A stretch of DNA of 64,000 nucleotides from Wandonia haliotis (GCF_039523435.1 NZ_BAAAFH010000001.1:1-64000), one strand, 5' to 3'. Positions 36,108 through 62,210 are shown, numbered from the stretch's first letter. Numbers and translations: made by a program. The notes: generated by a model not told the origin, from the letters alone.

Positions 36108-36785
36108 TTATTGTTTCACGTATTTCGCTAAAAATGAGTCTTTATAGGCTCTTCCTATAGGGATAGGGCGATCTCCCTCCACAACAACCTGACCTCCGGA
36201 AACCTTTGTTATCTTACTACTATTTACAAGGTAAGACTTATGAACCCTAATAAATCCAAGATCTGCCAGTTTACCTTCCCAATACGTCAGTGTCTCAGAA
36301 GAGAGCAACTTTTTATCTGAAAAATGAAATTCTGTATAATCCATATCCGAACAGATATAAGAAACGGAACTACTCCTGATCTGAACATATTCATGTCCCG
36401 TTTTTATAAAAAACAGTTTTCCATTATCAATAGATTCCTGCTTTTGTTTGGCCTTTTCTACCGCTCTCGTAAAACGCTCAAATGAAAAAGGTTTTACCAG
36501 GTAATCAATTGCATCAAAATCATAACTCCGAACGGCATAATCCGAAAAAGCGGTTGTAAAAATAACTGCAGGAGGATTAGTAAGAGCTTCCAGAAAATCT
36601 ATTCCGGATAGTTTTGGTAAATGAATATCAAGGAAAATCAGATCAACAGTTTCATTGTCAAGATACTCTAAAGCCTCAACAGGATCTGTAAAAACTCCTT
36701 GCAGGTTCAGGTTACCATAATCCAAAATGTATTTTTTTAGTACACGCTGCGCCGGTGCCTGATCTTCTACTATGATACAATTCAT
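36108..36785 (-). CDS. LytTR-family response regulator
   Basis: REC (IIVEDQAPAQ...FLDIHLPKLSGIDF) plus LytTR. Confidence 0.75.
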   Translation of the reverse strand: MNCIIVEDQAPAQRVLKKYILDYGNLNLQGVFTDPVEALEYLDNETVDLIFLDIHLPKLSGIDFLEALTNPPAVIFTTAFSDYAVRSYDFDAIDYLVKPFSFERFTRAVEKAKQKQESIDNGKLFFIKTGHEYVQIRSSSVSYICSDMDYTEFHFSDKKLLSSETLTYWEGKLADLGFIRVHKSYLVNSSKITKVSGGQVVVEGDRPIPIGRAYKDSFLAKYVKQ

Positions 36786-37819
36786 TCTTTTCCTTTTTTC
36801 AGATCCAAGCGAAGATCAACCTTATACCATTCTTCTTTTGCGCAGATATCCAACTCATAGGCAGCCGGGTATAATAAATCCAGCCTTTTCCTTACATTCT
36901 CCAAACCAATCCCTTTGGATAGGTCATTAGTATTGGATTGCTCCGAAAAACTGTTTGTACAGGTAAACCATAAGTGTCCACTCTCATCCACCTTAACATG
37001 GATAGCTATCTTTATATTCTTGCTTTAGCTGGATAAACTGTGCTTGAATGCATTTTCAACAAAAACGGATAATATCAACGGAGCAATTCGATAACCGGCA
37101 GGTAGTGGGCGCGTTACTTCAAAGATCACTTCTCCTCTCTCTTCAAATTGCAATTGACTCAGATTAATAAAATTCCCCAATTGCTCTAACTCATTTTTCA
37201 ATGGAACGAATTTCTCCTGACATTCATAAAGCATATAACGTAGCACTCCTGACAATTCAAGAATAATACCGGGTGTTTTTTCCGATTTTTCCAGAGCATA
37301 CGCATATAGATTGTTCAGATTATTGAATAAAAAGTGTGGGTTAATCTGAGATTTTAGATAAAGTAGTTCACTTTCTTTTACCGCTACCTGTAACTGCTCT
37401 AATTGCTTTTGTTTGGTAAGAGCATCCCACGCAAATTTAAACCCGGTTAAGATTGTGATTGTTGGAAGAGCTCCTACTAAATTGAAAAACACTCCGGGAA
37501 AATGGGTTCCTCTAGTATCCGGATAATAAATTTTCTCCAGAACACCTTCCTCCATAACAATTACAAAAGTGATCACCAAAACGATCCAACCGACAAACAA
37601 CAGATATTTTTTGCGGTACAAATAACGTGGTAACAAATAATAATTAATGAAGAAAGCTGCCAGAACGTAATTCAGAAAGAAAACAAGTTCCTGAATATCC
37701 ACTCTGAAATCCCGTCTGCGGTGGTCAAATGAATAAAAAATGAAAACCACTGTCAATAAAATACACTGGAATAAAAGCTCCTGTATTCTGGGGTTACGAA
37801 TTCTTTTTACCATTTGCAT
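36782..37819 (-). pseudogene. LytS-type sensor histidine kinase interrupted by an in-frame TAA (plus-strand coordinates 37025-37027) between the N-box and the G-boxes of the ATPase domain
   Basis: ORFs 37025..37819 (5-TM domain, INPHFLFNNLN, ENAFKHSLSS*) and 36782..36991 (KIAIHVKVDESGHLWF...GIGLENVRKRL) are in the same frame, separated only by one stop codon. Confidence 0.6.
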
Positions 37820-38018: not shown

Positions 38019-40394
38019 ATGAAATCCCTGATCAAATTGTTTGCTTCAATTGGTATCGTTGTTCTTTCGGGAAATAGTTTGGCACAAAGCGAAAAGTGGT
38101 TAATCAGCGGACAATTAACGGATGGAGAAACAGGAGAGGCTGTCCCCTATGCTGCCGTTATTGTTCATTCGTCAGTAACACATACTATTCTCAACGGAAT
38201 AACTACAAACGATCAAGGAAATTTTAAAGTAGGAACCGATTCGTCTGCCGTTTATCTCGAAATTAAATCTGTCGGTTATATTCCGGATACCATCCGTACG
38301 ATTCGTTTCAACACGCCCCATATTAATCTTGGTGAAATCAAATTGTTCCGGGATAATCAAATTCTGGAACAGGTGCAGGTAACAGCCGAACGTTCTACAA
38401 TGGAATTTAAACTCGACAGACGTGTTTATAATGTAGGTTCAGACATCAGTAGTACAGGAATGGGGGCCCTTGAAATATTAAATAATATTCCTTCGGTGAA
38501 TGTGGACATAGAAGGTCAGATTAGCTTGCGGGGAAATACAGGCGTACAAATTCTGATTGATGGAAAACCATCTGTCCTTGCTGATGAACAGGGAAATGCA
38601 CTTGGTACAATTACAGCTGACATGGTAGAGCGAATAGAGGTGATTACCAATCCCTCTGCCAAATACAATGCTGAAGGAACATCCGGAATTATCAATATTG
38701 TTCTTAAGAAGGAAGAAAAAAAGGGAATCAACGGATCTATCTCTCTGAATACAGGTTACCCAAACAATCATAGTATTGGAGGGAGTCTTAATTTGCGAAC
38801 GGAAAAATTCAACTTCTTTACACAATTTGGCGCCGGTTATCGTTCAATGCCCTGGGAAAGTAAAAGTACCAACCGGAATATTACTTCCGGTGATCGAATA
38901 GAAAGCGAAGGTAACAGTATCAAAAACGAAAATTTCTATAATATTACCATTGGTACCGACTACCACATCAATGAACGCAATGTCTTGACATTATCAGGGA
39001 ACTTCGCTTATGAACTGGAAACCAATCCTACTCAAACAGCTTTTTATCTGTACGACGAAAATCAGGAACTTTCTTCAAGTTATAACAGAACGGAAAAAAC
39101 AAAAGCTACGAACCCCAAATGGCAATATGACCTGCAATACCAGAAAACATTCACGAATAATAAAGAACACATTCTTCAGTTCAGTACACTGGGAAGTTTC
39201 TTTGGCAAAGACCAGTCTTCAGATTTTGAAAATGAGTACCTGACCGGAATAGCCAGTGATCCCAGCCAACGAACAGCAACAGATTTCTATCAGGCAGATT
39301 ATACATTTAAACTGGACTATACCAACCCGCTTACCAAAACAATTACATTAGAGACAGGAGCATTGTATGAGATTAATGATGTTGGAAATGATTACTCTGT
39401 AGACAATCAGTTAGGTGACTCCTGGATACCGGACACCAGTTTGACAAATAACTTTGAGTACAATCAAAAAGTTTTAGGGATATACACCACCGGATCTTAT
39501 GAAGGTAAAAAATGGGGGGTAAAGTTGGGAGTACGTTTAGAAAATACAGACCTTAAAACACTTTTGACAAATACAAACGAAAGAAATACACAAAACTACA
39601 CCAACTTCTTCCCTTCTTTACACACTTCCTATAAAATTTCGAGAGCGTTTTCTCTTCAGGCGGGTTATTCCCGACGCATCTTCCGCCCACGTTTGTGGGA
39701 TTTGAATCCTTTCTTCAACATTCGCAATACATACAATATCCGAACCGGTAATCCGGATTTGCAACCTGAATTTGCCGATTCGTATGAACTCACCGGGGTT
39801 TTCCTGTTTGAAAAATTATCGCTTAATATAAGTGGCTATTATCTTTACACGACTAATGTTACAGAACGTGTTTCTTATTTTGAAAACAATGTAAATATCA
39901 CAACCCCTATTAATGTAGGAATCCGGCACAAAACAGGGGGAGAAATTAATGCGAAGTACACCGCTACGAAATGGCTTACGCTGAATGGAGAAGCCAATTA
40001 CGGGTACTTTTTACGTAAAGGTGTTTTTGAAAATCAGAATTTCGACTTTGAAGGAAGTCAGTGGTCTGGTAAACTAACTGTGAAATTTAAACTTCCGGCA
40101 GACATTGATCTGGAAATTAATTCCAATTATCAGTCAGCTTACAAAACCGTACAGGGAAAAGTTTCCGGATTTGCGTTCGTTGACGCTGGTATTCGTAAAA
40201 GGCTCTGGAAAGGGAAAGGAGTTATCAATCTGAGTATCCGGGATATCTTTGCTTCAAGAATTCGTGAAAGCATTGTGGATCAACCCTCTTATTATCTGTA
40301 TAGTTTTTCAAAAAGAGGACGTTTTATCACACTCGGATTCAGCTATAGCTTCGGAAAAGGAGAAGCTATGACTTATAGTGGAGGAAAAAGGTAA
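38019..40394 (+). CDS. TonB-dependent-receptor-like outer-membrane beta-barrel protein (CarboxypepD_reg N-domain plus plug plus barrel)
   Basis: Signal peptide. Carboxypeptidase-regulatory-like N-domain (SGQLTDGETGEAVPYAAVIV). Plug-like region (NIPSVNVDIEGQISLRG). Long beta-rich C-terminal region. Confidence 0.7.
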   Translation: MKSLIKLFASIGIVVLSGNSLAQSEKWLISGQLTDGETGEAVPYAAVIVHSSVTHTILNGITTNDQGNFKVGTDSSAVYLEIKSVGYIPDTIRTIRFNTPHINLGEIKLFRDNQILEQVQVTAERSTMEFKLDRRVYNVGSDISSTGMGALEILNNIPSVNVDIEGQISLRGNTGVQILIDGKPSVLADEQGNALGTITADMVERIEVITNPSAKYNAEGTSGIINIVLKKEEKKGINGSISLNTGYPNNHSIGGSLNLRTEKFNFFTQFGAGYRSMPWESKSTNRNITSGDRIESEGNSIKNENFYNITIGTDYHINERNVLTLSGNFAYELETNPTQTAFYLYDENQELSSSYNRTEKTKATNPKWQYDLQYQKTFTNNKEHILQFSTLGSFFGKDQSSDFENEYLTGIASDPSQRTATDFYQADYTFKLDYTNPLTKTITLETGALYEINDVGNDYSVDNQLGDSWIPDTSLTNNFEYNQKVLGIYTTGSYEGKKWGVKLGVRLENTDLKTLLTNTNERNTQNYTNFFPSLHTSYKISRAFSLQAGYSRRIFRPRLWDLNPFFNIRNTYNIRTGNPDLQPEFADSYELTGVFLFEKLSLNISGYYLYTTNVTERVSYFENNVNITTPINVGIRHKTGGEINAKYTATKWLTLNGEANYGYFLRKGVFENQNFDFEGSQWSGKLTVKFKLPADIDLEINSNYQSAYKTVQGKVSGFAFVDAGIRKRLWKGKGVINLSIRDIFASRIRESIVDQPSYYLYSFSKRGRFITLGFSYSFGKGEAMTYSGGKR

Positions 40395-40426: not shown

Positions 40427-41110
40427 TTACTCAGCTTCAATAATCAATACCTCTCCAATGATGAAAGCTTTCGTTTCTGTTAGATAAAAGTCACGTTTAA
40501 CAGGAAGATCCTTTACTTTTACTCTAAACTCTGCACTTTCGTACCCTAAAAACCCAGCCTTGAGGACTACTATTTTCATCTTCAGCATTTCGGGGACCTC
40601 CATTTCAAACTCTCCTTCAAAGGTTGTTTGAACGACGATATCAGTTCCTACTAATTCTACTTTGACAAAAGGAAGTGGCTCTCCTGATTCATCCAGTATC
40701 CTCCCCCTGATAATCCGAAGTGAATCCTGAGGTTTCCGTTCATCTAGATGGTTCTTTCCAACCTTTACAACAGTAAACATTCCCTGTTGTAAAGCAGCCC
40801 TATCAGGTTTCATCGCAGCACCTACATTCCCTGTCATTAAAAAACTTGCAATCACTGATTGAATGATCGGATAGAAAGAAGTTATTCGTCTGTTACTCCT
40901 GTTTGTATTCAGTTGTTCGACACGAACTCTTCCACAAACTTTTGTACTTTTATTTTCCAGATATTTTACAATCTCTTCTTCCGAACAGTTTGTCAAATCA
41001 AGTACTTTATAATCACAAACACTACATAACTTTCCTTTTTCCAACTCGGTCATGAATTCCCACTGCTGATTGCAAGGGCTTGGAATAGTTATTCTTTTCT
41101 TCTTACTCAT
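40427..41110 (-). CDS. Hypothetical protein with an N-terminal Cys-rich region and a C-terminal carboxypeptidase-regulatory-like domain
   Basis: CNQQW...CSVCDYK Cys cluster. RGRILDESGEPLPFVKVELVG resembles CarboxypepD_reg. Confidence 0.4.
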   Translation of the reverse strand: MSKKKRITIPSPCNQQWEFMTELEKGKLCSVCDYKVLDLTNCSEEEIVKYLENKSTKVCGRVRVEQLNTNRSNRRITSFYPIIQSVIASFLMTGNVGAAMKPDRAALQQGMFTVVKVGKNHLDERKPQDSLRIIRGRILDESGEPLPFVKVELVGTDIVVQTTFEGEFEMEVPEMLKMKIVVLKAGFLGYESAEFRVKVKDLPVKRDFYLTETKAFIIGEVLIIEAE

Positions 41111-41180: not shown

Positions 41181-42521
41181 ATGAAACAATTTATACTACT
41201 ATTTATTATCGTTTTTACCTGTAAAATGATTCTTTCTCAAACAAAAGTAGCTATTGTTGGAGGAGGAATAGCAGGTGTCGCCAGTGCCTACTATATTCAT
41301 CAGTTTGACCCCTCTGCTCAAATTACTATTTATGAAAAAGAAGATTTTCTGGGAGGAAATGCCAAGACAGTTGAAATTGTAAATAAAAAAGGTATTACTT
41401 GTAATGTGGATATTGGTCCTCAATATTTCACAGAAGGTCCCTGGGATAATTACCTGAAATTCCTCGACGATGTAATTGGTTTGGAATCCATCGAAACCGA
41501 ATCTGTTCAAGGGTCTCTTCTTATAAAAAGGGAGGATAATAAAACTCCTACACTACTTACTCCCATCGATAAAAAATTACGTGGCGAAAAACTGGGAAAA
41601 CTATTACGATTAAAAAAATTTAACACAGCAGCTTTCAATGTTTATAAAAATCCGGAACAATGGATAGACAAAACAATTGATGATTGGGTGGTCTCTTTAA
41701 AGTTTTCACTTTCTTTTAAGAATGAGATTATTTATCCTTTTCTGGCTGCAACTTTAGGCACTGATATTCAATCTATAAAAACAACTTCAGCAATAGAAAT
41801 TGTTAATTTATTTGCTTTTCGAAAACCAAAAGTGTCTAACAGTTTTAGTATTATGACAAAGGGTATGGGAGGACTTATCCAAGCAATCGGAAATAAACTG
41901 GAACAATCTGGTGTTATAATAAAAACCAGTTCCCCCGTACACTCTATAACCAAAGAAAAAAATAGATATACAGTTCTCTTTCAGGAAGGCAATAAAAAGA
42001 AATCGGAATCAGTTGACTTTATTGTTATGGCCGTGCATGCTGATATAGCAGGCGAATTGTTGCGCCAAGATCCTGTTTTTGACAAAATCAGTCAACTACT
42101 AATTTCTCGGTTCCCTTATTTTAAAGCACATATTGTCCTTCATTCAGACGCAAATTACATATATTTTGCCCAACCTGCATTTCTTAATATTTTTACAAAT
42201 ATCACTAATGAAGTGACTTCATCAACTATGAACTTATCTATGATTTCACCACGATTGGAAGGAATTTATAAAAGTTGGATGTCAGAAAAAGAAATACAAC
42301 AGATAAAAGAAAAGGGATTATTTCTTCATGAAACCACGTTTTATCATCCTCTCATTACCCCTTCATTTGTAAATAGCTTAGATGAGCTTCATTTGCTTAC
42401 TGATTCAATTCCTGGAATTTGTTTTGCCGGCGGATGGACAGAAGGATTAGAAACACAAAACAGTGCTGTTCTTTCCGGAAAGCGTGCTTTACAACGCTAT
42501 CAACAAATAAAAAATGACTAG
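41181..42521 (+). CDS. Secreted NAD/FAD-dependent oxidoreductase (amine-oxidase-like flavoprotein)
   Basis: Signal peptide followed by the dinucleotide-binding motif VAIVGGGIAGVASAY...YEKEDFLGGNA. Confidence 0.6.
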   Translation: MKQFILLFIIVFTCKMILSQTKVAIVGGGIAGVASAYYIHQFDPSAQITIYEKEDFLGGNAKTVEIVNKKGITCNVDIGPQYFTEGPWDNYLKFLDDVIGLESIETESVQGSLLIKREDNKTPTLLTPIDKKLRGEKLGKLLRLKKFNTAAFNVYKNPEQWIDKTIDDWVVSLKFSLSFKNEIIYPFLAATLGTDIQSIKTTSAIEIVNLFAFRKPKVSNSFSIMTKGMGGLIQAIGNKLEQSGVIIKTSSPVHSITKEKNRYTVLFQEGNKKKSESVDFIVMAVHADIAGELLRQDPVFDKISQLLISRFPYFKAHIVLHSDANYIYFAQPAFLNIFTNITNEVTSSTMNLSMISPRLEGIYKSWMSEKEIQQIKEKGLFLHETTFYHPLITPSFVNSLDELHLLTDSIPGICFAGGWTEGLETQNSAVLSGKRALQRYQQIKND

Positions 42522-43657
42522 ACCTGTTCCCTCGAATAAGAGGGAATTTTTCTCTGTCTCCTTTCCCAATACGGTTCATTTTCCCAACGTTTTTCCATTG
42601 CGTAAAACAGGTTATAGTGTTTTAGGTAATGTAGCCAAATATTTTCTGAGCTTTCATAAAAGGATGTGTAAAACCGGGTCACTTTTTCTCTTTCCGGATC
42701 ACAAATGAAATCTATGGAACAAATTTGTTTTGCTGTTTGAGCAGCCATCACCATTGCATTGTACATTCCCTGAGACGAAAGCGGGTCAAAACACATAGCT
42801 GCATCTCCAATTGCTATCCAATTCTTCCGACCAATATTTTCCAGCCTATTGGTTCCGGCAGCTCTTGTTCCTAAAAAGCGAGGATCAATTATTCCCTTAA
42901 TTTCTAATTGTGACTGAAGAAGCGTATTCGATTGTAATTTCTGTAAAATAAACGCAGTATCTTTCGTTGCTGCTTTATCAAGTAAATCTGCATCTGTATA
43001 AAAAGAAACCAGTATTCTGTCTTTATCCGGAAGCGGACTGCAATACCACCAACCAGATGCTTCGGGAAGAATCGTTGAAACCATTCGATCATCTGTTTTT
43101 TTTACGGTTACGCTGATACAAATTTGCTGATCTTTTTTCACCCTGTTCAAATTCAACTTTTTCCTCAGAACGTTTGTTCTACCCGATGCATCAATCAGAA
43201 ATTTTGCTCTTATTTTTCGTTTCTCATTTCCACTTACATAAACTTCCCAAAAATCTTCTCTTTCATTTAATTTGTGGAGCCTCCCCTCCAGCCATTGAAC
43301 AGGATATTGATTTGTTATCTTCCTCAGCTCTCTCACGAAAGCAGGTTTATCAATACTCCAACCTTCTCCTTCCGGGTTTCTCAGTGCATCGGAATACACT
43401 GGATTTTCACTCCCCCAATACGACTTCACTCCTATTGAAGGAGTGCAAATGGTTGTATCAAGAGCACAAATCTGATTGTAAATCCCTAATTCTTTAAAAA
43501 TTCGTTTACTGGAAGGAACTAACGACTCTCCCCATACCCCAACCTGCTGATCCGGTTTATCAATAATGCAAACAGAGTATTTTTCACAAAGAAACATAGC
43601 CGAAATACATCCGGCTATGCCTCCTCCAATTATAAGAATATCCGTTTCCTCCGTCAT
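42518..43657 (-). CDS. FAD-dependent oxidoreductase of the LodB/GoxB-like family (flavoprotein partner of LodA-like quinoprotein oxidases)
   Basis: DILIIGGGIAGCISA GxGxxG motif and the GDAAMCFDPLSSQGMYNAMV FAD-binding motif. Its start abuts the stop of the upstream LodA-like gene. Confidence 0.6.
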   Translation of the reverse strand: MTEETDILIIGGGIAGCISAMFLCEKYSVCIIDKPDQQVGVWGESLVPSSKRIFKELGIYNQICALDTTICTPSIGVKSYWGSENPVYSDALRNPEGEGWSIDKPAFVRELRKITNQYPVQWLEGRLHKLNEREDFWEVYVSGNEKRKIRAKFLIDASGRTNVLRKKLNLNRVKKDQQICISVTVKKTDDRMVSTILPEASGWWYCSPLPDKDRILVSFYTDADLLDKAATKDTAFILQKLQSNTLLQSQLEIKGIIDPRFLGTRAAGTNRLENIGRKNWIAIGDAAMCFDPLSSQGMYNAMVMAAQTAKQICSIDFICDPEREKVTRFYTSFYESSENIWLHYLKHYNLFYAMEKRWENEPYWERRQRKIPSYSREQV

Positions 43658-46600
43658 CTATCTTCGTGCATTCAGTTGCTGTCGGAAACGCTCGTGTATG
43701 GTAATCACTTTCTCCCCTGGTTTTACATATGTTTTCTCAGGAAGTTGTTTCACCGGTTCTATAATCTGTTCTGTTATCGCCGTTCCCAGCATTGTTGTTT
43801 GCAGATTAGTATCGGCTTTTACCCAATTCTCACTTAAACTTTTCGTTGTTTCACTTACTGTCTCACTTTTCAACAGAACTTCTTTTTTCCTATCCGAAAG
43901 AATACCAACGATATAGTCGATCATATCCCCGATCTTATCCGTATCATCCTGCAAGAGATTTTCCAGAACAGGCCGGATTCTATCAACAGGTATAGTAATC
44001 CGGAAATGTTCTCTAAATAAATCGTGAATGGCCTGACAAAGATGGCCCAGCGTTTTAGGGTAAGCAACCTGTATTTTCTCCGGTAACTCCGGAACGTCCA
44101 AATCTTCCTGTAAAACGACTCCTACCCGATCAAAACTCGTGACCATCTTATTAATAACCTCTCTGTAATCTGTATATCGTGTCGGATGCCCCGGAAGATC
44201 GGACAACCACTCCTTCCGATATCTGAATTCTTCCATTTTCTGATCTGCGGGTATCTCTTCGTCCATTAACTGCTGGTATTGTGTGTACCCCAGAATATTA
44301 TTCGGAACTCGTGCCGGCCAGAATGTAGGTAAATAGGGATCGTAGGTTGTATCATATCCATCCCTGCAACTGGATGTATCCGTTTGCCATGGAATAGCCA
44401 TCCAACGTGTTATTCCTCCTGCTACCTGTCCCCCAAACGGATTTATGTCTGCCGTAACAATGCTGTAATCAATAGTTGCTCCATAATCAAGATGATCGCT
44501 TATCTTTTGGTTCTTATCGTGTGCAAACCTGAATGGTCCGCGATACATAGCTGGCATACGTACCGGCCACGTCATTTCACAACCCGGGTGAAAAGCATCC
44601 GCTAAACAAAAATCGAGTGCGGCTCTTGTTAACAGATCAGGTTGCTTACTTACCGGATACTCATCTATTGTACGATGTACTGCTTTTTCATCCAGATCAT
44701 TTACAAAATCTCCCTGAACCCATTGCTCCAGAAATCGAAGCTGTAGAGAAGTTAATGTTGTGTGCTGTCTTGGTGATCCCTGAGGGGGTAATTCAATTGC
44801 ATCACCGTACAACCAGGGCCACAAAGCCGGAGATTGTGATCCCGGAAGTTCAAACTGTCTGAACTGGTTATAAAGTGTTCGTCTGAACTCTAAATTAGTC
44901 ATCGACTGATCCGACAACCTCTCTATCCATTCCTCATTTGTAAAGTTAAACGGACCGAGATAACCAAACATTTCTGAGAACCCTCTGTTTACCCATTGCA
45001 AATCTGCCATTCGCATAAAAATCGGCAGAATATCATCCTTTAATGATGGACGCTGCGGACAAGGCAACATCTTTTGCGAAACAGCCAAATCACGCATTAA
45101 GTCCCACATGGTACGAACTGACTTCTGCATCGGAGCATAGTCCGGTGGTCCGCAAATCACCCAGGCAGGCTCAACCTGAAGCTCTTCACCTTTGTAGCTT
45201 ACTGTAGCGGTAACGGGTCCATCCGAAACATCATCATACCATCCTTCATTATTTGCAAAAGTGATAGCAGGTTCTCCGTTTATATTTTCTGATTTCCCCT
45301 TTCCTCCTACAAGATATAATCGGTTGGATTCAGGTTTCACAAACATATCTCCCAAATACACACTTTCATCCAAAAATGTACCCGCAAATGACTCTACATG
45401 TTTTGCTCCGTATTGTAAATCATTTGTTGCCGTGTCAGCGGCTATACAGGAAATAGATTTCTCTCCTCCGTCAATTACCAACGAATCCCTATTCTTTATA
45501 TTCATATTTCTGGGATTTGAAGCCGGATATTCTTTTGCTTCCGGAATATCAAGAGCAATGTTAAAGTCGTACCAGGCTGCTTTTTGATTCGCAAGATGAC
45601 ATGACCATGTAATTTCAACATCATCTACTTCTGCTCCGGTCAATTCTCTTACTGCCTCTCCCTTAGCATTTAATCCATAAATACGAAACTCTGCAGTTTG
45701 TCTTTTTAATCTCCCGTATTTATCCCTGTAAAAATCGTCTCCATTCGGTATTGGATCAGGTACTAATGGTCCCGGATATACCTCATCACTGTTTCCTATT
45801 CGCATAATTCCGATAGGCGGATAAATTGCAGCTCTGACTATACAGTCATCTATATTTTCTGATTTGGCATGGTATGGGCAGGGAGTAGATTCCGGTTCTC
45901 TCATATTCCAACCGTTTGCACTATAGCGTGTTTCAGCACTGTATTTATAGACTTCCCGTCTCGCTTCCGCTAATGTACCGAATGGTAAATTTTGGGTAGG
46001 AACTCTCCAAATATTAAAATTCAGATAATTCCCGAATTCAGGAAGCCCTTTCTGCATCGTATTCTGTTGTGGCAACACAACTTCTGCAATAGGGTAAAAC
46101 GGTTCTTTCCAGGTATGTTGCAAGTCCTCTCCTGCAGCTGCATCATACTCTTTCACCTGAATTTCAAAATGGAATCGATAATCTCCATTCAACAATCGGC
46201 TATGTAGATCTTCGGACAAGTAATTCTTATCCTCAAGAGGGTTTGAGCTTTCAGGATTAACAGGACGAAGACGATACTTCACCATGTATCCATCTCCGAA
46301 TTTAAAAGGAATTATCGCCCAGTAATTCGCTGTCAGGCAACTTCCTTCCGGGTGACTCATTTCTCCCAAAATTACTTTTGTTTCGGGATGTTTTTCAAGA
46401 TAAGTATCCAGATCTCTATCTATCATCGAAGCAGTTGTGAATTGACACATCTGATCCGCATCCTTCACAAAAAATCGATCAATATTCTGGAAAATAAAAT
46501 CGGTATTCGGAGCGGAGAAAAAATCATTATTACTCTCTTCTCCAAACAATTTCATCCCTATTCCGATGGTAGAATTTAAATCTGCCTGATTAGGTGCTAT

Positions 46601-46894
46601 ATCACTGGAAAATCTCAGGATACATTCAAACGAGTTGTCCTTTGATGTATCATAATTAAACACTCCCAAATCCTGTCCTTCGAGAAATTTTAATTCATCC
46701 GGGAGAGGTAACACTGAAAATCTTCCGGTTGCTATACCGTGTTGTTTTCTAAAAACAGCCCTCGGAGCAGGAGGTTTACCATTTGCAATCAATTTTTTCT
46801 GGTTAATGTCTACAAACATTTCCTTTAACCGTTCTATTGATCTTTTACCATCCGGATTCCAACAAGGGAAATCATTCACTGAATCATTTTTCAT
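43658..46894 (-). CDS. Fusion protein with an N-terminal catalase-related heme domain (~350 aa) and a LodA/GoxA-like cysteine-tryptophylquinone amino-acid oxidase domain (~720 aa). No signal peptide
   Basis: The N-terminal region follows the catalase pattern (RAVFRKQHGIATGRFSV distal-His motif; ILRFSS; IGMKLF...NTDFIFQNIDRFF). The C-terminal region matches LodA segments as I recall them (PPIGIMRIGN; WSCHLANQKAAWYDF; HPGCEMTW; MAIPWQTD). Confidence 0.6.
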   Translation of the reverse strand: MKNDSVNDFPCWNPDGKRSIERLKEMFVDINQKKLIANGKPPAPRAVFRKQHGIATGRFSVLPLPDELKFLEGQDLGVFNYDTSKDNSFECILRFSSDIAPNQADLNSTIGIGMKLFGEESNNDFFSAPNTDFIFQNIDRFFVKDADQMCQFTTASMIDRDLDTYLEKHPETKVILGEMSHPEGSCLTANYWAIIPFKFGDGYMVKYRLRPVNPESSNPLEDKNYLSEDLHSRLLNGDYRFHFEIQVKEYDAAAGEDLQHTWKEPFYPIAEVVLPQQNTMQKGLPEFGNYLNFNIWRVPTQNLPFGTLAEARREVYKYSAETRYSANGWNMREPESTPCPYHAKSENIDDCIVRAAIYPPIGIMRIGNSDEVYPGPLVPDPIPNGDDFYRDKYGRLKRQTAEFRIYGLNAKGEAVRELTGAEVDDVEITWSCHLANQKAAWYDFNIALDIPEAKEYPASNPRNMNIKNRDSLVIDGGEKSISCIAADTATNDLQYGAKHVESFAGTFLDESVYLGDMFVKPESNRLYLVGGKGKSENINGEPAITFANNEGWYDDVSDGPVTATVSYKGEELQVEPAWVICGPPDYAPMQKSVRTMWDLMRDLAVSQKMLPCPQRPSLKDDILPIFMRMADLQWVNRGFSEMFGYLGPFNFTNEEWIERLSDQSMTNLEFRRTLYNQFRQFELPGSQSPALWPWLYGDAIELPPQGSPRQHTTLTSLQLRFLEQWVQGDFVNDLDEKAVHRTIDEYPVSKQPDLLTRAALDFCLADAFHPGCEMTWPVRMPAMYRGPFRFAHDKNQKISDHLDYGATIDYSIVTADINPFGGQVAGGITRWMAIPWQTDTSSCRDGYDTTYDPYLPTFWPARVPNNILGYTQYQQLMDEEIPADQKMEEFRYRKEWLSDLPGHPTRYTDYREVINKMVTSFDRVGVVLQEDLDVPELPEKIQVAYPKTLGHLCQAIHDLFREHFRITIPVDRIRPVLENLLQDDTDKIGDMIDYIVGILSDRKKEVLLKSETVSETTKSLSENWVKADTNLQTTMLGTAITEQIIEPVKQLPEKTYVKPGEKVITIHERFRQQLNARR

Positions 46895-47077
46895 AGTTGT
46901 TTAGTTTAAAAAGATAAGTAGTTCAAAATTAGTCCATACTCAATTACAAATGCAATCGAGGAACATCAAAGTAACCCTTTTATTCTCCAAAAAAGAAGAG
47001 GGTTTCTACCTGTTTCAGCAAGTAAAAACACCTGTTTTTATTTAAACGCTTTACTTCTGTAGATCAAGTATATATTT

Positions 47078-49201
47078 CTACTGTCGAATCATTTTTTCCA
47101 CCCAAATTCCTTCTTTTGTATATACCTCTATGGTGTACATTCCCGACGAAAGAATAGAAAGGTCAACTGTAGTACCATCTGACTCTATTATTTTTTTCCC
47201 TTGCATATCTATAACACAGACATGAACTTCTCCTGTTACATTACCAATTGTCACAAGCCCACTAGTCGGATTCGGATATATTGAAATGTTCTTTATCTCC
47301 TCCGAATCCATTAGATCCAATGTTGTTATACTATAACAAGATGAAGTATCCGTACAGCCCTCATTGGTTGTCACAATCACTGCATACGTCCCGTTCTCTT
47401 CAGGAGAAAAAACTGCAGTTACAGCTCCCTCAATAGGAGTATTTCCGTTATCACAATCAATCCATTGATAGGTATTTCCAGAAATTGCTGTTAATGTTGC
47501 TGCTTGTAAAACGACAGTTGTATCAGGCAATGGGTTCTCTGTAATATAAAATTCTTGTGATCTGGCATAACATTCTTCATCTTGTATGGCAACCACAGAG
47601 TAATTACCCGATGAATTGACGTAAATGGTTGTATTGGTAGTATCTCCGTTGCTCCACAAATAATCATATCCTGGCGTTGTTGTAACATTTAACATTGCAC
47701 TATCTCCCTGACAAAATTCCACCTGAGAAGCAACCACAGTTGGTTCGGGCGTATTACACAATCCATATTGGGCAATAAAACCTCTATAATTACCAGTACC
47801 ATCTGTAAATGAAGTGGAGTTATCAAACACGATACGTTCCTTAAAACTCCCTGAAACAATGATATTCCCCCCTTCTCTTGCCAACCTGATATTTCTTCCC
47901 AAAACCCATGCAGCAGGAGCTCCTGAAGAAGGCGGTGGTCCGGTTTCTATGATTTCTTCCCAAATTTTTGTCCCTTCATTGTTATACTTTATAAACAAAC
48001 AATATACATCTCCTCCTAAACATGCTTGATGCCCACCAATCACATACACATTTCCTATTTCATCAACCTCTATCTGCGAATAATAATCGCATTGTGCATA
48101 CTCATACCTATCAATCCAATTGAGATCCCCATTTGAGGCGTTTAATTTTACTATAAAAGCATCTTTATTGTTAGAATTACCATAACTCGTTATTGTTGTT
48201 CCATCAATAGTAAATGATCCTCCATAAAATGATCCAGCCAAAAAAATGTTTCCCCAGGGATCAATACTCATTCCTGAAACATCAACTGTTCCTAAAGTCA
48301 CAACTCCTAAATCTTTTGTCCACAAAACTTCTCCCAACTCATTATATTTAGTCAGAACATGTTCTATTCTTGTATATCTGTATAGATTACTTTGACGATC
48401 CATCCCAAAAAATTCATAACCAAAATCATCAATACCGTTACTAATTACACCTAAACGCTGAATGGTTTGGAGATTTCCTAATGTATCATATACAGCTCGG
48501 AATGCATCTACACCTTGTTCATTATCTGTATTTATTGTATCTCCATTATCAAAAACCAATGTAGGTGTAAAGGTTGCTATCGTATGTATATTATCCTGTT
48601 GATCAAAATAAATTTCAAAATTGTCAGGGGGAATTGTTACAAAACTATTAGGACGAGCAATTGTACGTATCCACTGAGCGGTTCCATCCTGAGCATCCAT
48701 CTGTATCAGAACCAGATCTCCAGCACCAACAGAACCTGACTGGTGAGGAGGAAATGCAATCCCATCCACTATAATATTTTGTTCTCTAAAACACGTAAAT
48801 AAGTATAATCTGCCTTTATGATAAAAGAACTTATTTGGATTAGTGTTAGCATACGTTAGAAAGACAAATGGTATTTCTTTGATCCAAACGCCATTGCCAT
48901 TAGAATCATATTTAATCATAATACATTTACCATTAGCCCCAGCACTTACTGTAGTTCCATTTATAGTCAAAGAGGTTTGGTTTAAAACGCCTAATACATA
49001 TATATTACCCTCACTATCATTTGTTAAAAGACCTACATTCGATGCTCCAGAATTGCCTATTTTTTTTGCCCATGCAAAATCAGGTGTACCCTGAGCCTTT
49101 GCACCTTTTATTGTCAAAACAACAAGCATTGCAAAAAACAAGAATATGTAGTAGTTCTTTTTCATTGTATTAGTTTGAGAATTTAAATTTACATTTTTCA
49201 C
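47078..49201 (-). CDS. Secreted beta-propeller-repeat protein with a T9SS C-terminal domain
   Basis: Signal peptide, repeat-rich body, and a C-terminal ISIYPNPTSGLVTIGN...YTIEVYTKEGIWVEKMIRQ. Confidence 0.7.
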   Translation of the reverse strand: MKNVNLNSQTNTMKKNYYIFLFFAMLVVLTIKGAKAQGTPDFAWAKKIGNSGASNVGLLTNDSEGNIYVLGVLNQTSLTINGTTVSAGANGKCIMIKYDSNGNGVWIKEIPFVFLTYANTNPNKFFYHKGRLYLFTCFREQNIIVDGIAFPPHQSGSVGAGDLVLIQMDAQDGTAQWIRTIARPNSFVTIPPDNFEIYFDQQDNIHTIATFTPTLVFDNGDTINTDNEQGVDAFRAVYDTLGNLQTIQRLGVISNGIDDFGYEFFGMDRQSNLYRYTRIEHVLTKYNELGEVLWTKDLGVVTLGTVDVSGMSIDPWGNIFLAGSFYGGSFTIDGTTITSYGNSNNKDAFIVKLNASNGDLNWIDRYEYAQCDYYSQIEVDEIGNVYVIGGHQACLGGDVYCLFIKYNNEGTKIWEEIIETGPPPSSGAPAAWVLGRNIRLAREGGNIIVSGSFKERIVFDNSTSFTDGTGNYRGFIAQYGLCNTPEPTVVASQVEFCQGDSAMLNVTTTPGYDYLWSNGDTTNTTIYVNSSGNYSVVAIQDEECYARSQEFYITENPLPDTTVVLQAATLTAISGNTYQWIDCDNGNTPIEGAVTAVFSPEENGTYAVIVTTNEGCTDTSSCYSITTLDLMDSEEIKNISIYPNPTSGLVTIGNVTGEVHVCVIDMQGKKIIESDGTTVDLSILSSGMYTIEVYTKEGIWVEKMIRQ

Positions 49202-49290: not shown

Positions 49291-51672
49291 TTATTTCAGG
49301 ACCTGCACCTTTTCTGCATACGTTCGGTTATCAACAGTAATTAAGATTACATAGGTTCCTTCCTGTATGCGTTTTTCTGATATCTGGTTCGTTCCTTGTT
49401 TCAGACTTCCCTGAGCAACGACAGCCCCCTTCATATCAATAATTTGAAAATCGGCTGACTGTTCTATTCTTTTTCCTATCTCTATGGAAAACTGTCCACT
49501 ATTCGGATTTGGATATAGTCGAATTTTGTCATTCGAAGTAATTCCTATATCGTTATTTCCTCCCAATATCATGGCACTATATGAGCCTCCTCCTGTACAC
49601 AAATTGGTTGTACAACCATTCGTATCCATTACTCGTACACATACACTATCCGGAGGTGTAGATGTTCCATAAAGACTTAACGTAGGAGCTGTATTTGCAT
49701 TTTGTACACCGTCCAGGAACCAGGTATAGCTTGACGCTCCGGGAACCGCAGGGTTTATATAATACAGATCACTTGATGGAAGCGGAACGAGCAATAAACT
49801 TGAACCTGACCCCAGTGAAACAGGTACATTTAGTGTGCTACTTGTCCCACAGGGAGTCTGATGAGCTATATGTAACGTATAATTCGTAGAACTTGCAGCT
49901 CCTGATGTATTTAACGTAATTTGTCCTGTAGAAGGATTAACACTATAGCTCAACAACAAATCAGAAGGAGTTGAACTGACAGTATAGGTTCCGGTAAATG
50001 GTGACGGAGCATTGTTAATTACCACAGATGTAGTACCGTCTATTCCCACATTAAAACATCCAACTGTAGCCGTATCCGGATCTACAGGATTGAAATTGAT
50101 ATTCCAAATTGCCGAATTCACACTGTTACACCCCATACCAGAAGTATCAACACCTGTAGCCGTAATAGCTCCTATGGTTACTCCACTTGGCGTAACAACA
50201 ATTGTTTCTGTAGAACTGCTACCTGTCCATCCGGGAGGCAGGGTCCATTGATAATTCCCCGGAGGGCTTACCGTATAGGTCAGATTACCCGTGGCACCAT
50301 GATTAATACATGTACTTCCTGCAACAATTGTTGGATCATCAGGTCGTACACGCACTGTAAACTGTATCGTATCACTGGGGCATTCGCATGAATACGCCTC
50401 AAGTGTATACACTCCTCCCGGAGTTCCGTTTGGAATGGTAATATCCAAATTCGATTCTGTGTTATTTAGCGCATTAGCTGTCCAACCCGCTGGTAGATTC
50501 CAACAAGTTTGATTCCCTTGAACTCCTACAGGATAGATTTGATAATTATGAGTTGTACTATCATTTACACATGTATCTCCGACAATAGATACCAATGGTG
50601 TTGAGAAACTTCTTCTAATAGTATCTGTAACAGTTACAGAACTACATCCTCCATTTTTCACTTCCAGAGATAAGATACCTCCGTTATAACCAATTCCTGA
50701 AACCGTTGCTCCTCCTGCATTCGGAGTAATCAACCATTGTGGATTATTGGACGACCATTCATAAGTATATCCGGGAACATAAGGAGTAACTCCAACTGCG
50801 AATGATGTTGCAGTCACGTCCAAGCAGCCCGGAGAACTCAATACAGGAGGAGAAGGACTAGCTCCCACTACTGTGGTAATACAGGTTGTATGCATGGCTC
50901 CGGAAACATCTCCATCCCATGGGTTCGCTCTCCCAAAACAACATTGAATGGTGTAAGGAGCATTTAATGTTCCGGGAGCAACAATCGTCACCGAGCTTTT
51001 ATCAGCAGAAGTATAGACCTGATTTACAATTGTATCTCCGTTACTATCTGTAATTGTCCAGTAATAACTATCCAGTCCTATTCCATCGGGTAAATTATCA
51101 CTAGCTATTTGATCTACAGAGTAGGTATAAGTTGAATCTGTTAACCAGCAATCAGGCCCTACAATATTCGGAATTGGATTACTGTAAACTTTGTAAACTT
51201 TAAAATAAATACTATTTGAACATCCATTCAGTGTATCATCGTATGGGATCCGTACTTGCCCGATACTCCTTGCTAAATTTGGATTTACCGATTGTTCAGA
51301 TTGTCTTACATCTTTGTTGTAAGACATTATATCAGCTGATCCTCCAATAGCTGATACAATAGGGTCTCCATAAGGATTCACATTAGGTGCTATTGACAAA
51401 TCTCCCAAAAGATACCAACCATTAGTCGTATTTCCATTAGGATTAATAGTAAATGTCCCTCCAATATATGGATCAGGCATGGTTACAATACCACCATTTC
51501 CAACCACTCCTCCAAAACCCGTTGTACCGCCGACACCGGCAACAACAACATTACATACAGCAGGCACATTGACTGTAGGTTGTGCCAATAACTCGCCGGA
51601 GATAATTAACATCACTCCGGTGAATAAGAACCCCAAAAAGCCTCCTTTTCGGTTTGTTATTATATATTTCAT
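49291..51672 (-). CDS. Large secreted Ig-like/PKD-like multidomain protein with a T9SS C-terminal domain
   Basis: Signal peptide. Thr/Ser/Gly-rich beta domains. C-terminal IRLYPNPNSGQFSIEIGK...YVILITVDNRTYAEKVQVLK. Confidence 0.7.
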   Translation of the reverse strand: MKYIITNRKGGFLGFLFTGVMLIISGELLAQPTVNVPAVCNVVVAGVGGTTGFGGVVGNGGIVTMPDPYIGGTFTINPNGNTTNGWYLLGDLSIAPNVNPYGDPIVSAIGGSADIMSYNKDVRQSEQSVNPNLARSIGQVRIPYDDTLNGCSNSIYFKVYKVYSNPIPNIVGPDCWLTDSTYTYSVDQIASDNLPDGIGLDSYYWTITDSNGDTIVNQVYTSADKSSVTIVAPGTLNAPYTIQCCFGRANPWDGDVSGAMHTTCITTVVGASPSPPVLSSPGCLDVTATSFAVGVTPYVPGYTYEWSSNNPQWLITPNAGGATVSGIGYNGGILSLEVKNGGCSSVTVTDTIRRSFSTPLVSIVGDTCVNDSTTHNYQIYPVGVQGNQTCWNLPAGWTANALNNTESNLDITIPNGTPGGVYTLEAYSCECPSDTIQFTVRVRPDDPTIVAGSTCINHGATGNLTYTVSPPGNYQWTLPPGWTGSSSTETIVVTPSGVTIGAITATGVDTSGMGCNSVNSAIWNINFNPVDPDTATVGCFNVGIDGTTSVVINNAPSPFTGTYTVSSTPSDLLLSYSVNPSTGQITLNTSGAASSTNYTLHIAHQTPCGTSSTLNVPVSLGSGSSLLLVPLPSSDLYYINPAVPGASSYTWFLDGVQNANTAPTLSLYGTSTPPDSVCVRVMDTNGCTTNLCTGGGSYSAMILGGNNDIGITSNDKIRLYPNPNSGQFSIEIGKRIEQSADFQIIDMKGAVVAQGSLKQGTNQISEKRIQEGTYVILITVDNRTYAEKVQVLK

Positions 51673-53603: not shown

Positions 53604-54932
53604 TCAGAGTAAGCCTCTGGCTTTTATTTCAAGGTATTTATTTATCGTTTCCATTGTCAGGTTTTCAGGCTCTGTCAAAACGGAATAAATACCATGTTTC
53701 CTGAGTTCGTTCACAATTAAGCGTTTCTCAAACTCATATTTCTCAGCAGTGACTTTTTCAAAAACCTCAAACAAATCAGAAGATTTTCGTTCAATGATGT
53801 GATCCAGTTCGGTATTTCTAAAAAAAACAATAACCAGTAAATGACTTTTTGCCATTCCTTTCAGATAAGGCAATTGTCTTTTCATACTTTCTATTGTATC
53901 AAAATTTGTGAATAACATCAATAAACTTCGCTGTCTGACTGTTCGTTTGACATCTACATATAATCGACTAAAATCACTTTCTTTAAAATCCGTCTGGATG
54001 GAATACAGATTTTCTGTAATCAACTGCATTTGCGTCTTTCTTCTGTCCGCTGCAATGATATTTTCTACTTTTCTGGAAAAAGTAAACATCCCGGCCTTAT
54101 CACTTTTATTGATAATTACATTTGCCAGTACTAATGTAGAATTTATTGCATAGTCCAGTAATGTCATCCCGTTAAAAGGCATTTTCATCTGACGTCCCTT
54201 GTCAATAACCAGATAGATTTCCTGTGCTTTCTCGTCCTGGTATTGATTCACCATCAATTCATTCCGTTTGGCCGTTGCTTTCCAGTTTATCGTACGGATA
54301 TCATCTCCTCTGACATATTCTTTGATCTGTTCAAATTCAGTTGTATGACCTATTCTTCGGATCTTTCGCAATCCGAAATGCTTAAATTTATCATTAAATG
54401 CTACCAGCCCATATTTTCGTAACTGGATGTATGAAGGGTAGACAGGGACCATTTTATCTGAATCAAAACGATACCGTTTTGCAACCAAACCAATAGCTGA
54501 ACTCACATAGCAATTTAAAGCTCCAAACTGATACTCACCTCTTTCTACAGGGCGAAGAAAATAAACAAATTCATCACTCTGTCCGGACTTTATTGTCCGA
54601 ATTACCGAAAAGTCACGTATCTGAAATTGCACCGGGATTTCATCTACAACTTCAATACGTGTTGTAAACGAATAATTACTTCTTAGTTTTATCAGGATCT
54701 CATTTTGATCTCCATTTGACAATCGATCCGCAGCAATGCGCTCTCCCGTGATTCCGTTTTTCATAAACAGGATCACACTGTCTATTAATGTAGCTGTTAG
54801 TAACGCTACAAGACATAGTTCCGCAACGACAAATAACCATCCAAAGAAAAAAGACACAATGAACAAAGCTACAATTCCCAACAAGGAATAGAAAAACAAT
54901 GAGTTTATATAGAGTGCCTTCGCTACTTTCAT
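53604..54932 (-). CDS. DUF58-family protein (MoxR-associated, vWA-like) with N-terminal TM helices
   Basis: Position directly downstream of the MoxR ATPase, N-terminal TM pair, size. Confidence 0.6.
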   Translation of the reverse strand: MKVAKALYINSLFFYSLLGIVALFIVSFFFGWLFVVAELCLVALLTATLIDSVILFMKNGITGERIAADRLSNGDQNEILIKLRSNYSFTTRIEVVDEIPVQFQIRDFSVIRTIKSGQSDEFVYFLRPVERGEYQFGALNCYVSSAIGLVAKRYRFDSDKMVPVYPSYIQLRKYGLVAFNDKFKHFGLRKIRRIGHTTEFEQIKEYVRGDDIRTINWKATAKRNELMVNQYQDEKAQEIYLVIDKGRQMKMPFNGMTLLDYAINSTLVLANVIINKSDKAGMFTFSRKVENIIAADRRKTQMQLITENLYSIQTDFKESDFSRLYVDVKRTVRQRSLLMLFTNFDTIESMKRQLPYLKGMAKSHLLVIVFFRNTELDHIIERKSSDLFEVFEKVTAEKYEFEKRLIVNELRKHGIYSVLTEPENLTMETINKYLEIKARGLL

Positions 54933-54937
54933 GTTAC

Positions 54938-55942
54938 TTAACGGGGAATTTCAACACTATCAACAATCTGTCCGATAACCTGAGAAGCAGTCAATCCCTC
55001 CATTTCTCGTTCCGGAGAAACGATGATTCTGTGTTGCAGAACCGGTACAGCAGCATCTTTTATATCATCAGGTGTAACAAAATCACGTCCGCGAATAGCT
55101 GCAAATCCTTTCGCTGCATTCAAAAGAGCGATGGAAGCTCTCGGTGATCCTCCCAAATATAAAAACTGATGTTCCCGTGTTTGCATAACTAATCTCGCTA
55201 TGTATTCAAACAGGTGCTCTTCGATCTTAATCTTTTTCACCAATTCCTGATATCCTACTAATTCTTTTTGCGCAATAACCGTATTGATCCCTTCCATCTT
55301 ATCCTTGTTCTCAAGCTTGTTTTCTTTCACAAGAATATTAACCTCTTCTTCCAAAGATGGATACCCAACATTGATTTTAAACAGAAAACGATCAAGTTGA
55401 GCTTCGGGTAAACGATAAGTACCTTCCTGTTCAATCGGGTTTTGCGTAGCAATAACCAGAAAAGGTGGATCCATCAAATACGTAGTTCCGTCCGCAGTAA
55501 TCTGACGTTCTTCCATTACCTCAAACAAAGCAGCTTGTGTTTTTGCCGGAGCACGGTTAATCTCATCAATCAGTACAAAATTAGCAAACACCGGTCCTCT
55601 TTTGAATTCAAAAGCAGACTTAGACACATCAAACACAGATGTTCCAATAATGTCTGAAGGCATTAAATCCGGTGTAAACTGAATCCGGCTAAAATTCAGA
55701 GATAATGTTCTTGCAAGTAACTTGGCTGTAACTGTTTTCGCAACACCGGGTGCACCTTCAATGAGAACATGTCCGTTTGCAAGAATTGCTACCAGTAACT
55801 GATCGATCATTTTATCCTGTCCGACAATCACCTTTCCGATCTCATTCCGTACAGCATCGACAGCAACCTTTAAAGGTTCAAGGTTGATACGCGACTCGAA
55901 GTTTACCCCTCCGTTTTCTTCCAACTCTTTATTTTCTTCCAT
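54938..55942 (-). CDS. MoxR-family AAA+ ATPase
   Basis: VIVGQDKMIDQLLVAILANGHVLIEGAPGVAKT Walker A region and the characteristic MoxR C-terminal region. Confidence 0.9.
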   Translation of the reverse strand: MEENKELEENGGVNFESRINLEPLKVAVDAVRNEIGKVIVGQDKMIDQLLVAILANGHVLIEGAPGVAKTVTAKLLARTLSLNFSRIQFTPDLMPSDIIGTSVFDVSKSAFEFKRGPVFANFVLIDEINRAPAKTQAALFEVMEERQITADGTTYLMDPPFLVIATQNPIEQEGTYRLPEAQLDRFLFKINVGYPSLEEEVNILVKENKLENKDKMEGINTVIAQKELVGYQELVKKIKIEEHLFEYIARLVMQTREHQFLYLGGSPRASIALLNAAKGFAAIRGRDFVTPDDIKDAAVPVLQHRIIVSPEREMEGLTASQVIGQIVDSVEIPR

Positions 55943-62130: not shown

Positions 62131-62136
62131 TTTTCG

Positions 62137-62210
62137 TGGCGCGGGGGAGATTTGAACTCCCGACCTCAGGGTTATGAATCCTGCGCTCTAACCAACTGAG
62201 CTACCGCGCC
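62137..62210 (-). tRNA. tRNA with anticodon CAT (elongator Met, or Ile2 if C34 is modified to lysidine)
   Basis: The reverse complement folds into a full cloverleaf: GGCGCGG / TA / GCTC AGTTGGTTA GAGC / G / CAGGA TTCATAA CCCTG / AGGTC / GGGAG TTCAAAT CTCCC / CCGCGCC / A. The G1-C72 pair argues against an initiator. Confidence 0.85.

Follow-up and report, generated by a model that had tools for sequence, protein, structure and literature searches.

What does a catalase-like haem domain do when it is joined in one polypeptide to an oxidase that would release hydrogen peroxide (H2O2)? The question is raised by a two-gene operon in a 64,000-nucleotide (nt) stretch of Wandonia haliotis DNA (GCF_039523435.1, NZ_BAAAFH010000001.1:1-64000; this whole stretch is called the window), in which a fusion gene for a protein of 1078 amino acids (aa) is followed by a lodB-like gene (Table 1). 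The initial annotation described a LodA-like quinoprotein oxidase with a built-in catalase or peroxidase domain. The fold and the proximal Tyr of that domain stand, but its reading as a catalase is doubtful, the canonical distal His being replaced by Phe48. The strict exchange of His for Phe in LodA-linked haem domains is the only point that goes beyond the literature found.

The N-terminal ~345 aa belong to the catalase superfamily and have the catalase fold, as a minimal mini-catalase of ~340 aa; the membership is established by relatives, by a family profile and by the modelled fold, not by Pfam on the domain itself. An AlphaFold model of aa 1-355 (predicted local distance difference test, pLDDT, 77; predicted template modelling score, pTM, 0.81) has 3e4w as its top Foldseek match (7.7e-14), followed by dozens of canonical catalases; 161 PDB chains match the model at E<=1e-3, and the best 50 are 3e4w/3e4y and catalases. 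The family profile, compared with PDB chains, finds 3e4w (1.3e-10), coral cAOS (3.5e-5), H. pylori KatA (7.5e-5) and human catalase (~1e-4). The catalase fold that had been read from the first ~350 aa is thereby borne out. The Pfam search proposed with it gave a divided result: LodA_N and LodA_C were recovered, but the catalase model PF00199 misses this domain and is matched weakly by 8 of 12 aligned family members (best 3.7e-6). No NCBIfam catalase model is matched by the full-length protein at E<=0.01.

The residues that hold the haem in related proteins are conserved. In 80 species genomes from at least eight phyla, R45, R94, S96, N137, R312, Y316 and R323 occur without exception wherever the codon is readable; R312, Y316 and R323 are invariant in an alignment of 31 diverse fusions and occur in 79-80 of the 80 genomes. 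R45 aligns with the Arg of the catalase R-x-x-H motif and R94 with the Arg of RFS, and R323 corresponds by spacing to R360 of cAOS, the seven-residue step from the Tyr being the same as between cAOS Y353 and R360 (PMC5617202). In cAOS the equivalents of the haem-holding residues are R64, R102, R360, Y353 and N137 (PMC5617202). Because the counterparts of these five are conserved, the domain appears to retain everything that is needed to hold a Tyr-ligated haem, and is predicted to bind one.

Catalases need a distal acid-base His for the formation of Compound I. The initial annotation had made its reading depend on the haem-ligating Tyr and His; the domain has the Tyr, as Tyr316, and lacks the canonical distal His. 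The register is R45-A-V-F48-R-K50 against R-V-V-H-A-K in catalase, and in HMMER alignments the distal His of 3e4w, of KatA and of E. coli KatE (His128; alignment E=7e-10; KatE sequence from the annotated E. coli genome) falls on Phe48. When 288 family members are aligned to the family profile, this column holds Phe in 186 and His in 77. Phe48 is found in all 132 members with LodA motifs, and LodA motifs are found in none of the 77 His48 members. Among the 80 species genomes, Phe48 and His52 are each invariant (79/79). The invariant Phe48 of LodA-linked members weighs against a simple built-in catalase, which the LodA-linked haem domain, to judge by sequence, probably is not.

The distal His had initially been placed in the RKQHG motif, that is, at His52, which lies off the canonical position occupied by Phe48. 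His is present at 52 in 259 of 268 family members, irrespective of His or Phe at 48; in the alignments it falls opposite a gap in 3e4w and KatE and opposite a Ser in KatA. As a candidate distal His, H52 was rejected on three grounds: the His of three catalases aligns to F48; R45 and K50 are near-universal in the family and R49 is not; and the 77 relatives lacking LodA motifs have the exact R-x-x-H-x-K at positions 45-50. The His48 members read R-D-A-H-P-K-x-H-G, which is the catalase motif with a family-specific extra His at 52. Some His48-type proteins have other partners: P0127 (949 aa) carries the catalase-like domain C-terminal to a RoxA-like cytochrome c domain, P0106 (1335 aa) has a weak DyP-peroxidase match, and P0073 (1223 aa) is an eukaryotic-looking ankyrin/TPR/LsmAD fusion.

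A LodA/GoxA-family quinoprotein, with its conserved Asp, Cys and Trp, makes up the C-terminal ~730 aa, in agreement with the initial assignment of residues ~355-1078. Pfam LodA_N (PF17990) covers aa 358-581 (1.9e-68; 231.1 bits, gathering cut-off 26.3) and LodA_C (PF18417) covers aa 707-859 (8.2e-39; 133.1 bits, gathering cut-off 25). The NCBIfam models GoxA (NF038173; 3.9e-122, 408.3 bits, aligned over model positions 37-630 of 668) and LodA (NF038172; 2.4e-47, 161.6 bits) are matched below their equivalog cut-offs of 750 and 600 bits, respectively, so the protein is a family member and not an orthologue of either characterised enzyme, and its substrate is probably neither glycine nor lysine. 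A PDB sequence search returned P. luteoviolacea GoxA (PlGoxA; 3e-41) and M. mediterranea LodA (5e-34), and the full-length AlphaFold model (pLDDT 78, pTM 0.66) matches PlGoxA (6byw, 6.6e-29) and LodA (~1e-24). Past residue ~945 the 31-fusion alignment has few conserved columns; a helical tail is seen there in the secondary structure and pLDDT of the full-length model, and a Pfam search of this extension gave no family.

The site of the cysteine tryptophylquinone (CTQ) cofactor can be placed by alignment. The Cys/Trp pair that forms CTQ is stated to be 100% conserved (PMC4417212). The LodA alignment ends at query residue 844 (LodA 517), which places LodA C516 on C843 (WQTDTSSC) and makes C843 its counterpart. 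In the PlGoxA alignment D839 equals D678, W859 (PTFWPA) equals W697, H769 equals H583 and F546 equals F316; the GoxA and LodA residue numbers come from PDB alignment coordinates and from PDB entry titles naming D678, H583, F316, Y766 and H767. We take C682/W697 to be the CTQ pair of PlGoxA, and that of M. mediterranea GoxA is presumably C551/W566, with a Cys-Trp spacing of 15 residues. The Asp corresponding to PlGoxA D678 sits near the cofactor (PMC7876137). D839, C843, W859, H769 and F546 are invariant in the 31 diverse fusions and in the 80 species genomes.

The expected Cys/Trp pair is thus present as C843 and W859, but the initial annotation had looked for it in the wrong motifs. The Cys of HPGCEMTW, taken as the CTQ cysteine, is C772, which is Val in PlGoxA, and LodA C516 maps to C843; MAIPWQTD, taken as the CTQ tryptophan region, precedes the CTQ Cys, and the CTQ Trp is W859 in PTFWPA. 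Cys772 itself (HPGCE, aa 769-773, nt 44576-44590) is invariant in all 80 fused relatives and Val in PlGoxA. It may be the counterpart of the LodA active-site Cys448, and it could mark the substrate or O2 specificity of Group III, the group of LodA-like proteins in which such fusions are placed.

The 379-aa open reading frame (ORF) that follows the fusion gene is, by its profile scores, a family-level relative of LodB/GoxB. It matches NCBIfam LodB (1.2e-56, 192.4 bits) and GoxB (2.3e-55, 188.1 bits) end to end (361/361 model positions), under the equivalog cut-off of 400 bits for both. Its Pfam matches are Trp_halogenase and FAD_binding_3, and a GGGIAG motif for binding of flavin adenine dinucleotide (FAD) occupies residues 11-16. 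The ATG of this second gene abuts the TAG of the first with zero spacer, a layout that suggests translational coupling. In these respects the initial annotation was accurate: both ORFs lie where it had placed them, the LodB-type flavoprotein gene abuts the stop codon, and all the peptide strings that it quoted are read off the translation of the fusion protein. Its claim that a signal peptide is missing also holds, judged by eye from the sequence and not with a predictor, as the N-terminus (MKNDSVNDFPCWNPDGKRSIERLKEMF...) is hydrophilic and has no hydrophobic core.

Upstream of the operon, at 47029-47002, is a hairpin that resembles a terminator and belongs to the preceding gene; a TAATTTTG box (46931-46924) lies 29 nt 5' of the fusion-gene ATG. 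The box is a lone occurrence of the Bacteroidetes TAnnTTTG motif, which is unenriched within the window (65 found against 78.6 expected), and is weak evidence. A sigma-70 promoter scan gave no more sites than in shuffled sequence.

Table 1. Features of the fusion gene, its partner gene and the upstream region (nt positions count from the first letter of the window).
Feature	Residues	Position (nt)	Strand	Basis
Fusion gene: catalase-fold haem domain, LodA/GoxA-type CTQ oxidase and helical C-terminal extension	1078 aa	43658..46894	-	ORF, Pfam, NCBIfam
LodB/GoxB-type FAD flavoprotein gene, presumed CTQ maturase	379 aa	42518..43657	-	NCBIfam, Pfam
Upstream intergenic region, 183 nt		46895..47077	-	
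Catalase-fold haem domain (mini-catalase, y4iL/MAP_2744c-like)	1-345	45860..46894	-	AlphaFold, Foldseek, family profile
Phe48 codon, at the canonical catalase distal-His position	48	46751..46753	-	HMMER alignments
His52 codon, family-wide conserved His four residues past the canonical position	52	46739..46741	-	
Asn137, counterpart of the catalase distal Asn	137	46484..46486	-	Aligned with KatE Asn201; Asn in 80/80 genomes
Proximal haem-ligand segment, R312-x-x-x-Y316 ... R323	312-323	45926..45961	-	Aligned with 3e4w R..VY
LodA/GoxA-type quinoprotein oxidase core	348-931	44102..45853	-	Pfam, NCBIfam GoxA, structure match
CTQ site: Asp839, Cys843 (CTQ cysteine), Trp859 (CTQ tryptophan)	839-859	44318..44380	-	LodA and PlGoxA alignments
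Poorly conserved C-terminal extension; helical tail at ~aa 949-1050 in the model	945-1078	43661..44062	-	
Peptide strings quoted in the initial annotation	RKQHG 49-53; RFSS 94-97; FQNID 135-139; PPIGIMRIGN 359-368; WSCHLANQKAAWYDF 430-444; HPGCEMTW 769-776; MAIPWQTD 832-839			

The fusion had been presented as a new arrangement, but it has been in the literature since 2015. A survey of that year tabulates 21 members of the LodA-like family, all in Group III, that carry a pfam00199/CD08152 (y4iL-like) domain at the N-terminus; among them are a 1072-aa protein of Flavobacterium soli (G508DRAFT_03147) and one of 1061 aa from Tenacibaculum ovolyticum (H518DRAFT_02976) (Campillo-Brocal et al. 2015, BMC Genomics 16:231, Table 3, PMC4417212). 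A preprint of July 2026 describes this architecture for an endosymbiont of the Rickettsiales and for Acaryochloris, and speculates on in-situ H2O2 detoxification (10.64898/2026.03.27.714854). Relatives are encoded in at least 561 GTDB species genomes. The Wandonia fusion is another member of a known, widespread class without biochemical characterisation.

Full-length relatives number more than 120, with identities of 47-99%. The 99%-identical protein P0162 in public assemblies is a metagenomic copy; the next-nearest relatives, 69-70% identical, come from metagenome-assembled genomes of Crocinitomicaceae and Flavobacteriia, which points to a Crocinitomicaceae-like flavobacterium as the probable source of the window. 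Proteins of Tenacibaculum, Flavobacterium, Dokdonia and Pedobacter share 47-54% identity with the fusion protein across 85-99% of the length. Fused relatives occur in genera of the 2015 table (Tenacibaculum, Flavobacterium, Pseudoalteromonas, Azospirillum, Massilia and Sphingomonas), and the assignment to Group III is made by architecture and these shared genera, not by a tree with the 2015 reference set. An exhaustive profile search gave 4553 haem-domain clusters, of which many are N-terminal fusions of 950-1080 aa confirmed to carry LodA_N and LodA_C. The idea that the haem domain is rare, raised by a first word-indexed search with only 11 relatives, was rejected as a sensitivity artefact after the profile and full-length searches.

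The gene pair is kept together across this range. In 77 of the 80 related loci the next gene downstream, read from the same strand, is LodB-like, and two of the three exceptions are at a contig edge; a LodB-like gene is likewise present in three other inspected contigs, and the flanking genes vary between loci. Genes for stand-alone domains of the Phe48 type are also found, and three of the four examined sit immediately upstream of a separate lodA-like gene for 650-670 aa (L006/L007, L088 and L089); in L006 and L088 the gene after that is lodB-like, or is unannotated and similar in size. Since the gene order of these three independent split operons equals the domain order of the fusion, they support a functional coupling in which haem domain and oxidase would work together, as do the fusions themselves, which number in the hundreds. 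Another stand-alone Phe48-type protein, P0009 of Bradyrhizobium sp. LMG 9283 (L005, CP120691.1, 8001-8999), has no adjacent lodA-like gene; tyrosinase, PpoB2 and ferritin-like genes are its neighbours, so that here too the context is one of a quinone-forming oxidase.

The completion of CTQ by a flavoprotein and the oxidase chemistry can be carried over from the LodA and GoxA systems (PMC7876137, PMC11951088). By this analogy, the LodB/GoxB-type flavoprotein would help to convert Cys843 and Trp859 into CTQ, and the CTQ domain would act as an amine or amino-acid oxidase that deaminates a primary amine or amino acid to a carbonyl compound, ammonium and H2O2. The haem domain would then act in cis on the peroxide from the oxidase half, by a peroxidatic or peroxide-transforming route and not by classical catalase dismutation. 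A precedent is found in the catalase-related-lipoxygenase fusions of corals and cyanobacteria, in which the catalase-like domain does not scavenge H2O2 and transforms the hydroperoxide made by its partner (PMC5617202). A CTQ amine oxidase whose haem domain handles its H2O2 in cis, non-catalatically, is the reading preferred here, tentatively and with slightly less than even confidence. It is possible, if on the whole unlikely, that the haem domain has been neofunctionalised so that H2O2 from CTQ drives a second oxidation at the haem, of the amine-derived product or of a co-substrate. Such a peroxygenase- or peroxidase-like, or peroxide-rearranging, step would, if true, be a new coupled oxidase-haem chemistry in bacteria.

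Several points weigh against the non-catalatic peroxide-handling reading. The N-terminal 355 aa alone give zero Pfam matches even at E<=10, PF00199 included. Since coral cAOS, too, relies on a distal His (His67), the lack of this residue may slow peroxide activation of every kind, peroxidatic or catalatic, and the haem domain could be non-catalytic. The pTM of the full-length model means that the interdomain geometry is not fixed. No biochemical work on LodA-like proteins that are catalase-fused or in Group III turned up in literature searches (PMC4417212; 10.64898/2026.03.27.714854).

A true built-in catalase, which would dismutate the H2O2 of the oxidase and protect the host from a cytoplasmic enzyme, with H52 or another residue in place of the distal His, is rather unlikely. 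The conserved catalase fold, proximal Tyr, distal Asn and haem-binding Args, the invariant H52 near the canonical position and the lack of a visible signal peptide would all suit such an enzyme, but every LodA-linked member has Phe at the canonical distal-His position, and catalases mutated at the distal His, such as E. coli HPII at H128, have essentially no activity. Relatives that retain His48 conserve H52 just as well, so H52 is not a compensatory replacement. The same idea is proposed in the 2026 preprint (10.64898/2026.03.27.714854), but coral cAOS, with all the catalase residues, still fails to scavenge H2O2 (PMC5617202).

Improbable as well is a non-catalytic haem domain, that is, a structural, oligomerisation or regulatory (haem-, peroxide- or gas-sensing) module that modulates the oxidase. 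It would explain why the catalytic His is lost and the haem-holding residues are kept, and a Phe stacked on the haem would close a hydrophobic distal pocket. Strict conservation of Asn137 and Ser96 in at least eight phyla suggests instead a working distal pocket; Ser96 is the equivalent of KatE Ser167, a Ser that we take to hydrogen-bond the distal His. The split operons, moreover, keep the domain as a separate protein, contrary to a purely structural role within one polypeptide.

A role in cofactor biogenesis or repair, in which the haem domain would use H2O2 for an oxidation step in CTQ formation as MauG does, is very unlikely. A haem enzyme takes part in the formation of tryptophan tryptophylquinone (TTQ), and LodA/GoxA have no dedicated enzyme for the first Trp hydroxylation (PMC7876137). 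Within this clade, every haem domain has a CTQ protein as its partner, but the LodB-like maturase is kept in 77 of 80 loci, so nothing has been replaced, and the characterised LodA and GoxA mature without a haem partner. The fold is unrelated to that of MauG, a di-haem protein of TTQ biosynthesis, and the absent distal His disfavours high-valent haem.

The reduction potentials of catalase-type Tyr-ligated b-haems are very low and such haems are not known to carry electrons, which, with the missing c-type CXXCH motif and an oxidase core closest to the O2-using GoxA and LodA, makes it highly improbable that the haem takes electrons from reduced CTQ and that the enzyme is a dehydrogenase instead of an oxidase. 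Transfer of this kind is modelled on the QHNDH-type CTQ enzymes, which pass electrons to haems (PMC7876137, PMC11951088).

The gene adds a further copy to a widespread enzyme class that is known bioinformatically, and no substrate is known for any Group III LodA-like protein. The fused haem domain should not be assumed to be a catalase, with Phe48 invariant and the haem-binding residues and distal Asn kept. Screens based on H2O2, for example with Amplex Red, could miss the oxidase activity of such fusions. Phe48 turns a vague idea of self-protection into a direct experimental handle, and new peroxide chemistry at the haem domain, if it takes place, would be relevant to protein-derived cofactors and biocatalysis.

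The genes around the operon are of several kinds. On the side of the lodB-like gene, a 446-aa flavin amine-oxidase-like ORF (41181-42521, + strand; Pfam Amino_oxidase 3e-19) with a hydrophobic, signal-peptide-like N-terminus is convergent with it and overlaps it by 4 nt, both stop codons sharing bases 42518-42521. It is a second, unrelated type of amine oxidase adjoining the CTQ oxidase, and was rejected as a part of the system as it has no homologue in the 80 related loci. Further on lie a 227-aa protein with a Cys-rich N-terminus (CNQQW...CSVCDYKV) and a CarboxypepD_reg-like domain (40427-41110, -), a TonB-dependent-receptor-like outer-membrane protein (38019-40394, +; OMP_b-brl_3, Plug, CarboxypepD_reg), and, ~5 kb from the operon, a LytTR-type two-component pair (36108-37819, -; His_kinase PF06580 and a Response_reg/LytTR regulator). 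Immediately upstream of the operon are two large proteins (47078-49201 and 49291-51672, both -) with C-terminal Por_Secre_tail domains of type IX secretion; type IX secretion and CHU_C proteins are also found beside the gene pair of the 69%-identical relative on L001, which may be coincidence. A MoxR-type AAA ATPase (AAA_3) followed by a DUF58 protein (53604-55942, -) starts a BatA/MoxR-like operon, and the sole tRNA gene in the window is tRNA-Met (CAT; 62136-62210, -).

Among known systems, the Group III fusions of the 2015 survey have the same three-part architecture, size, phylum and downstream lodB-like gene, and no qualitative difference is seen (PMC4417212). The pair AC2SM2_00110/AC2SM2_00115 of Candidatus Penulousia baltica, a Rickettsiales endosymbiont, was described bioinformatically and is likened here by that description; its authors likewise suggest in-situ H2O2 detoxification (10.64898/2026.03.27.714854). 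With PlGoxA (6byw) and M. mediterranea LodA (3weu, 2ymw) the protein has in common LodA_N/LodA_C, a lodB/goxB partner gene and the absence of a signal peptide. D839/C843/W859 correspond to D678/C682/W697 of PlGoxA, and D839/C843 to D512/C516 of LodA, whose CTQ pair is C516/W581. Only the fusion protein has the additional haem domain of 345 aa, its helical C-terminus is longer, and C772, invariant in the fusion clade, is Val in PlGoxA.

For the haem domain, the best structural (7.7e-14) and sequence (1.3e-10) match is MAP_2744c, a 33-kDa catalase-related protein of Mycobacterium avium subsp. paratuberculosis (3e4w, 3e4y), which has the same minimal catalase core of ~300-340 aa and an aligned proximal R-x-x-x-Y. 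MAP_2744c stands alone, reads R-A-L-H-A-K with a distal His and has no counterpart of H52, whereas the fusion reads R-A-V-F-R-K; the identity is 18-19%. The allene oxide synthase- and hydroperoxide lyase-lipoxygenase fusions of corals (1u5u, 3dy5) also have a catalase-related haem domain at the N-terminus and an oxygen-using enzyme at the C-terminus, and there the haem domain processes the peroxide of its partner and has no catalase role (PMC5617202). The coral partner is a lipoxygenase that makes a fatty-acid hydroperoxide, whereas here a quinoprotein would make H2O2, and cAOS keeps its distal His67 (with Thr66), in contrast to the Phe of the LodA-linked clade.

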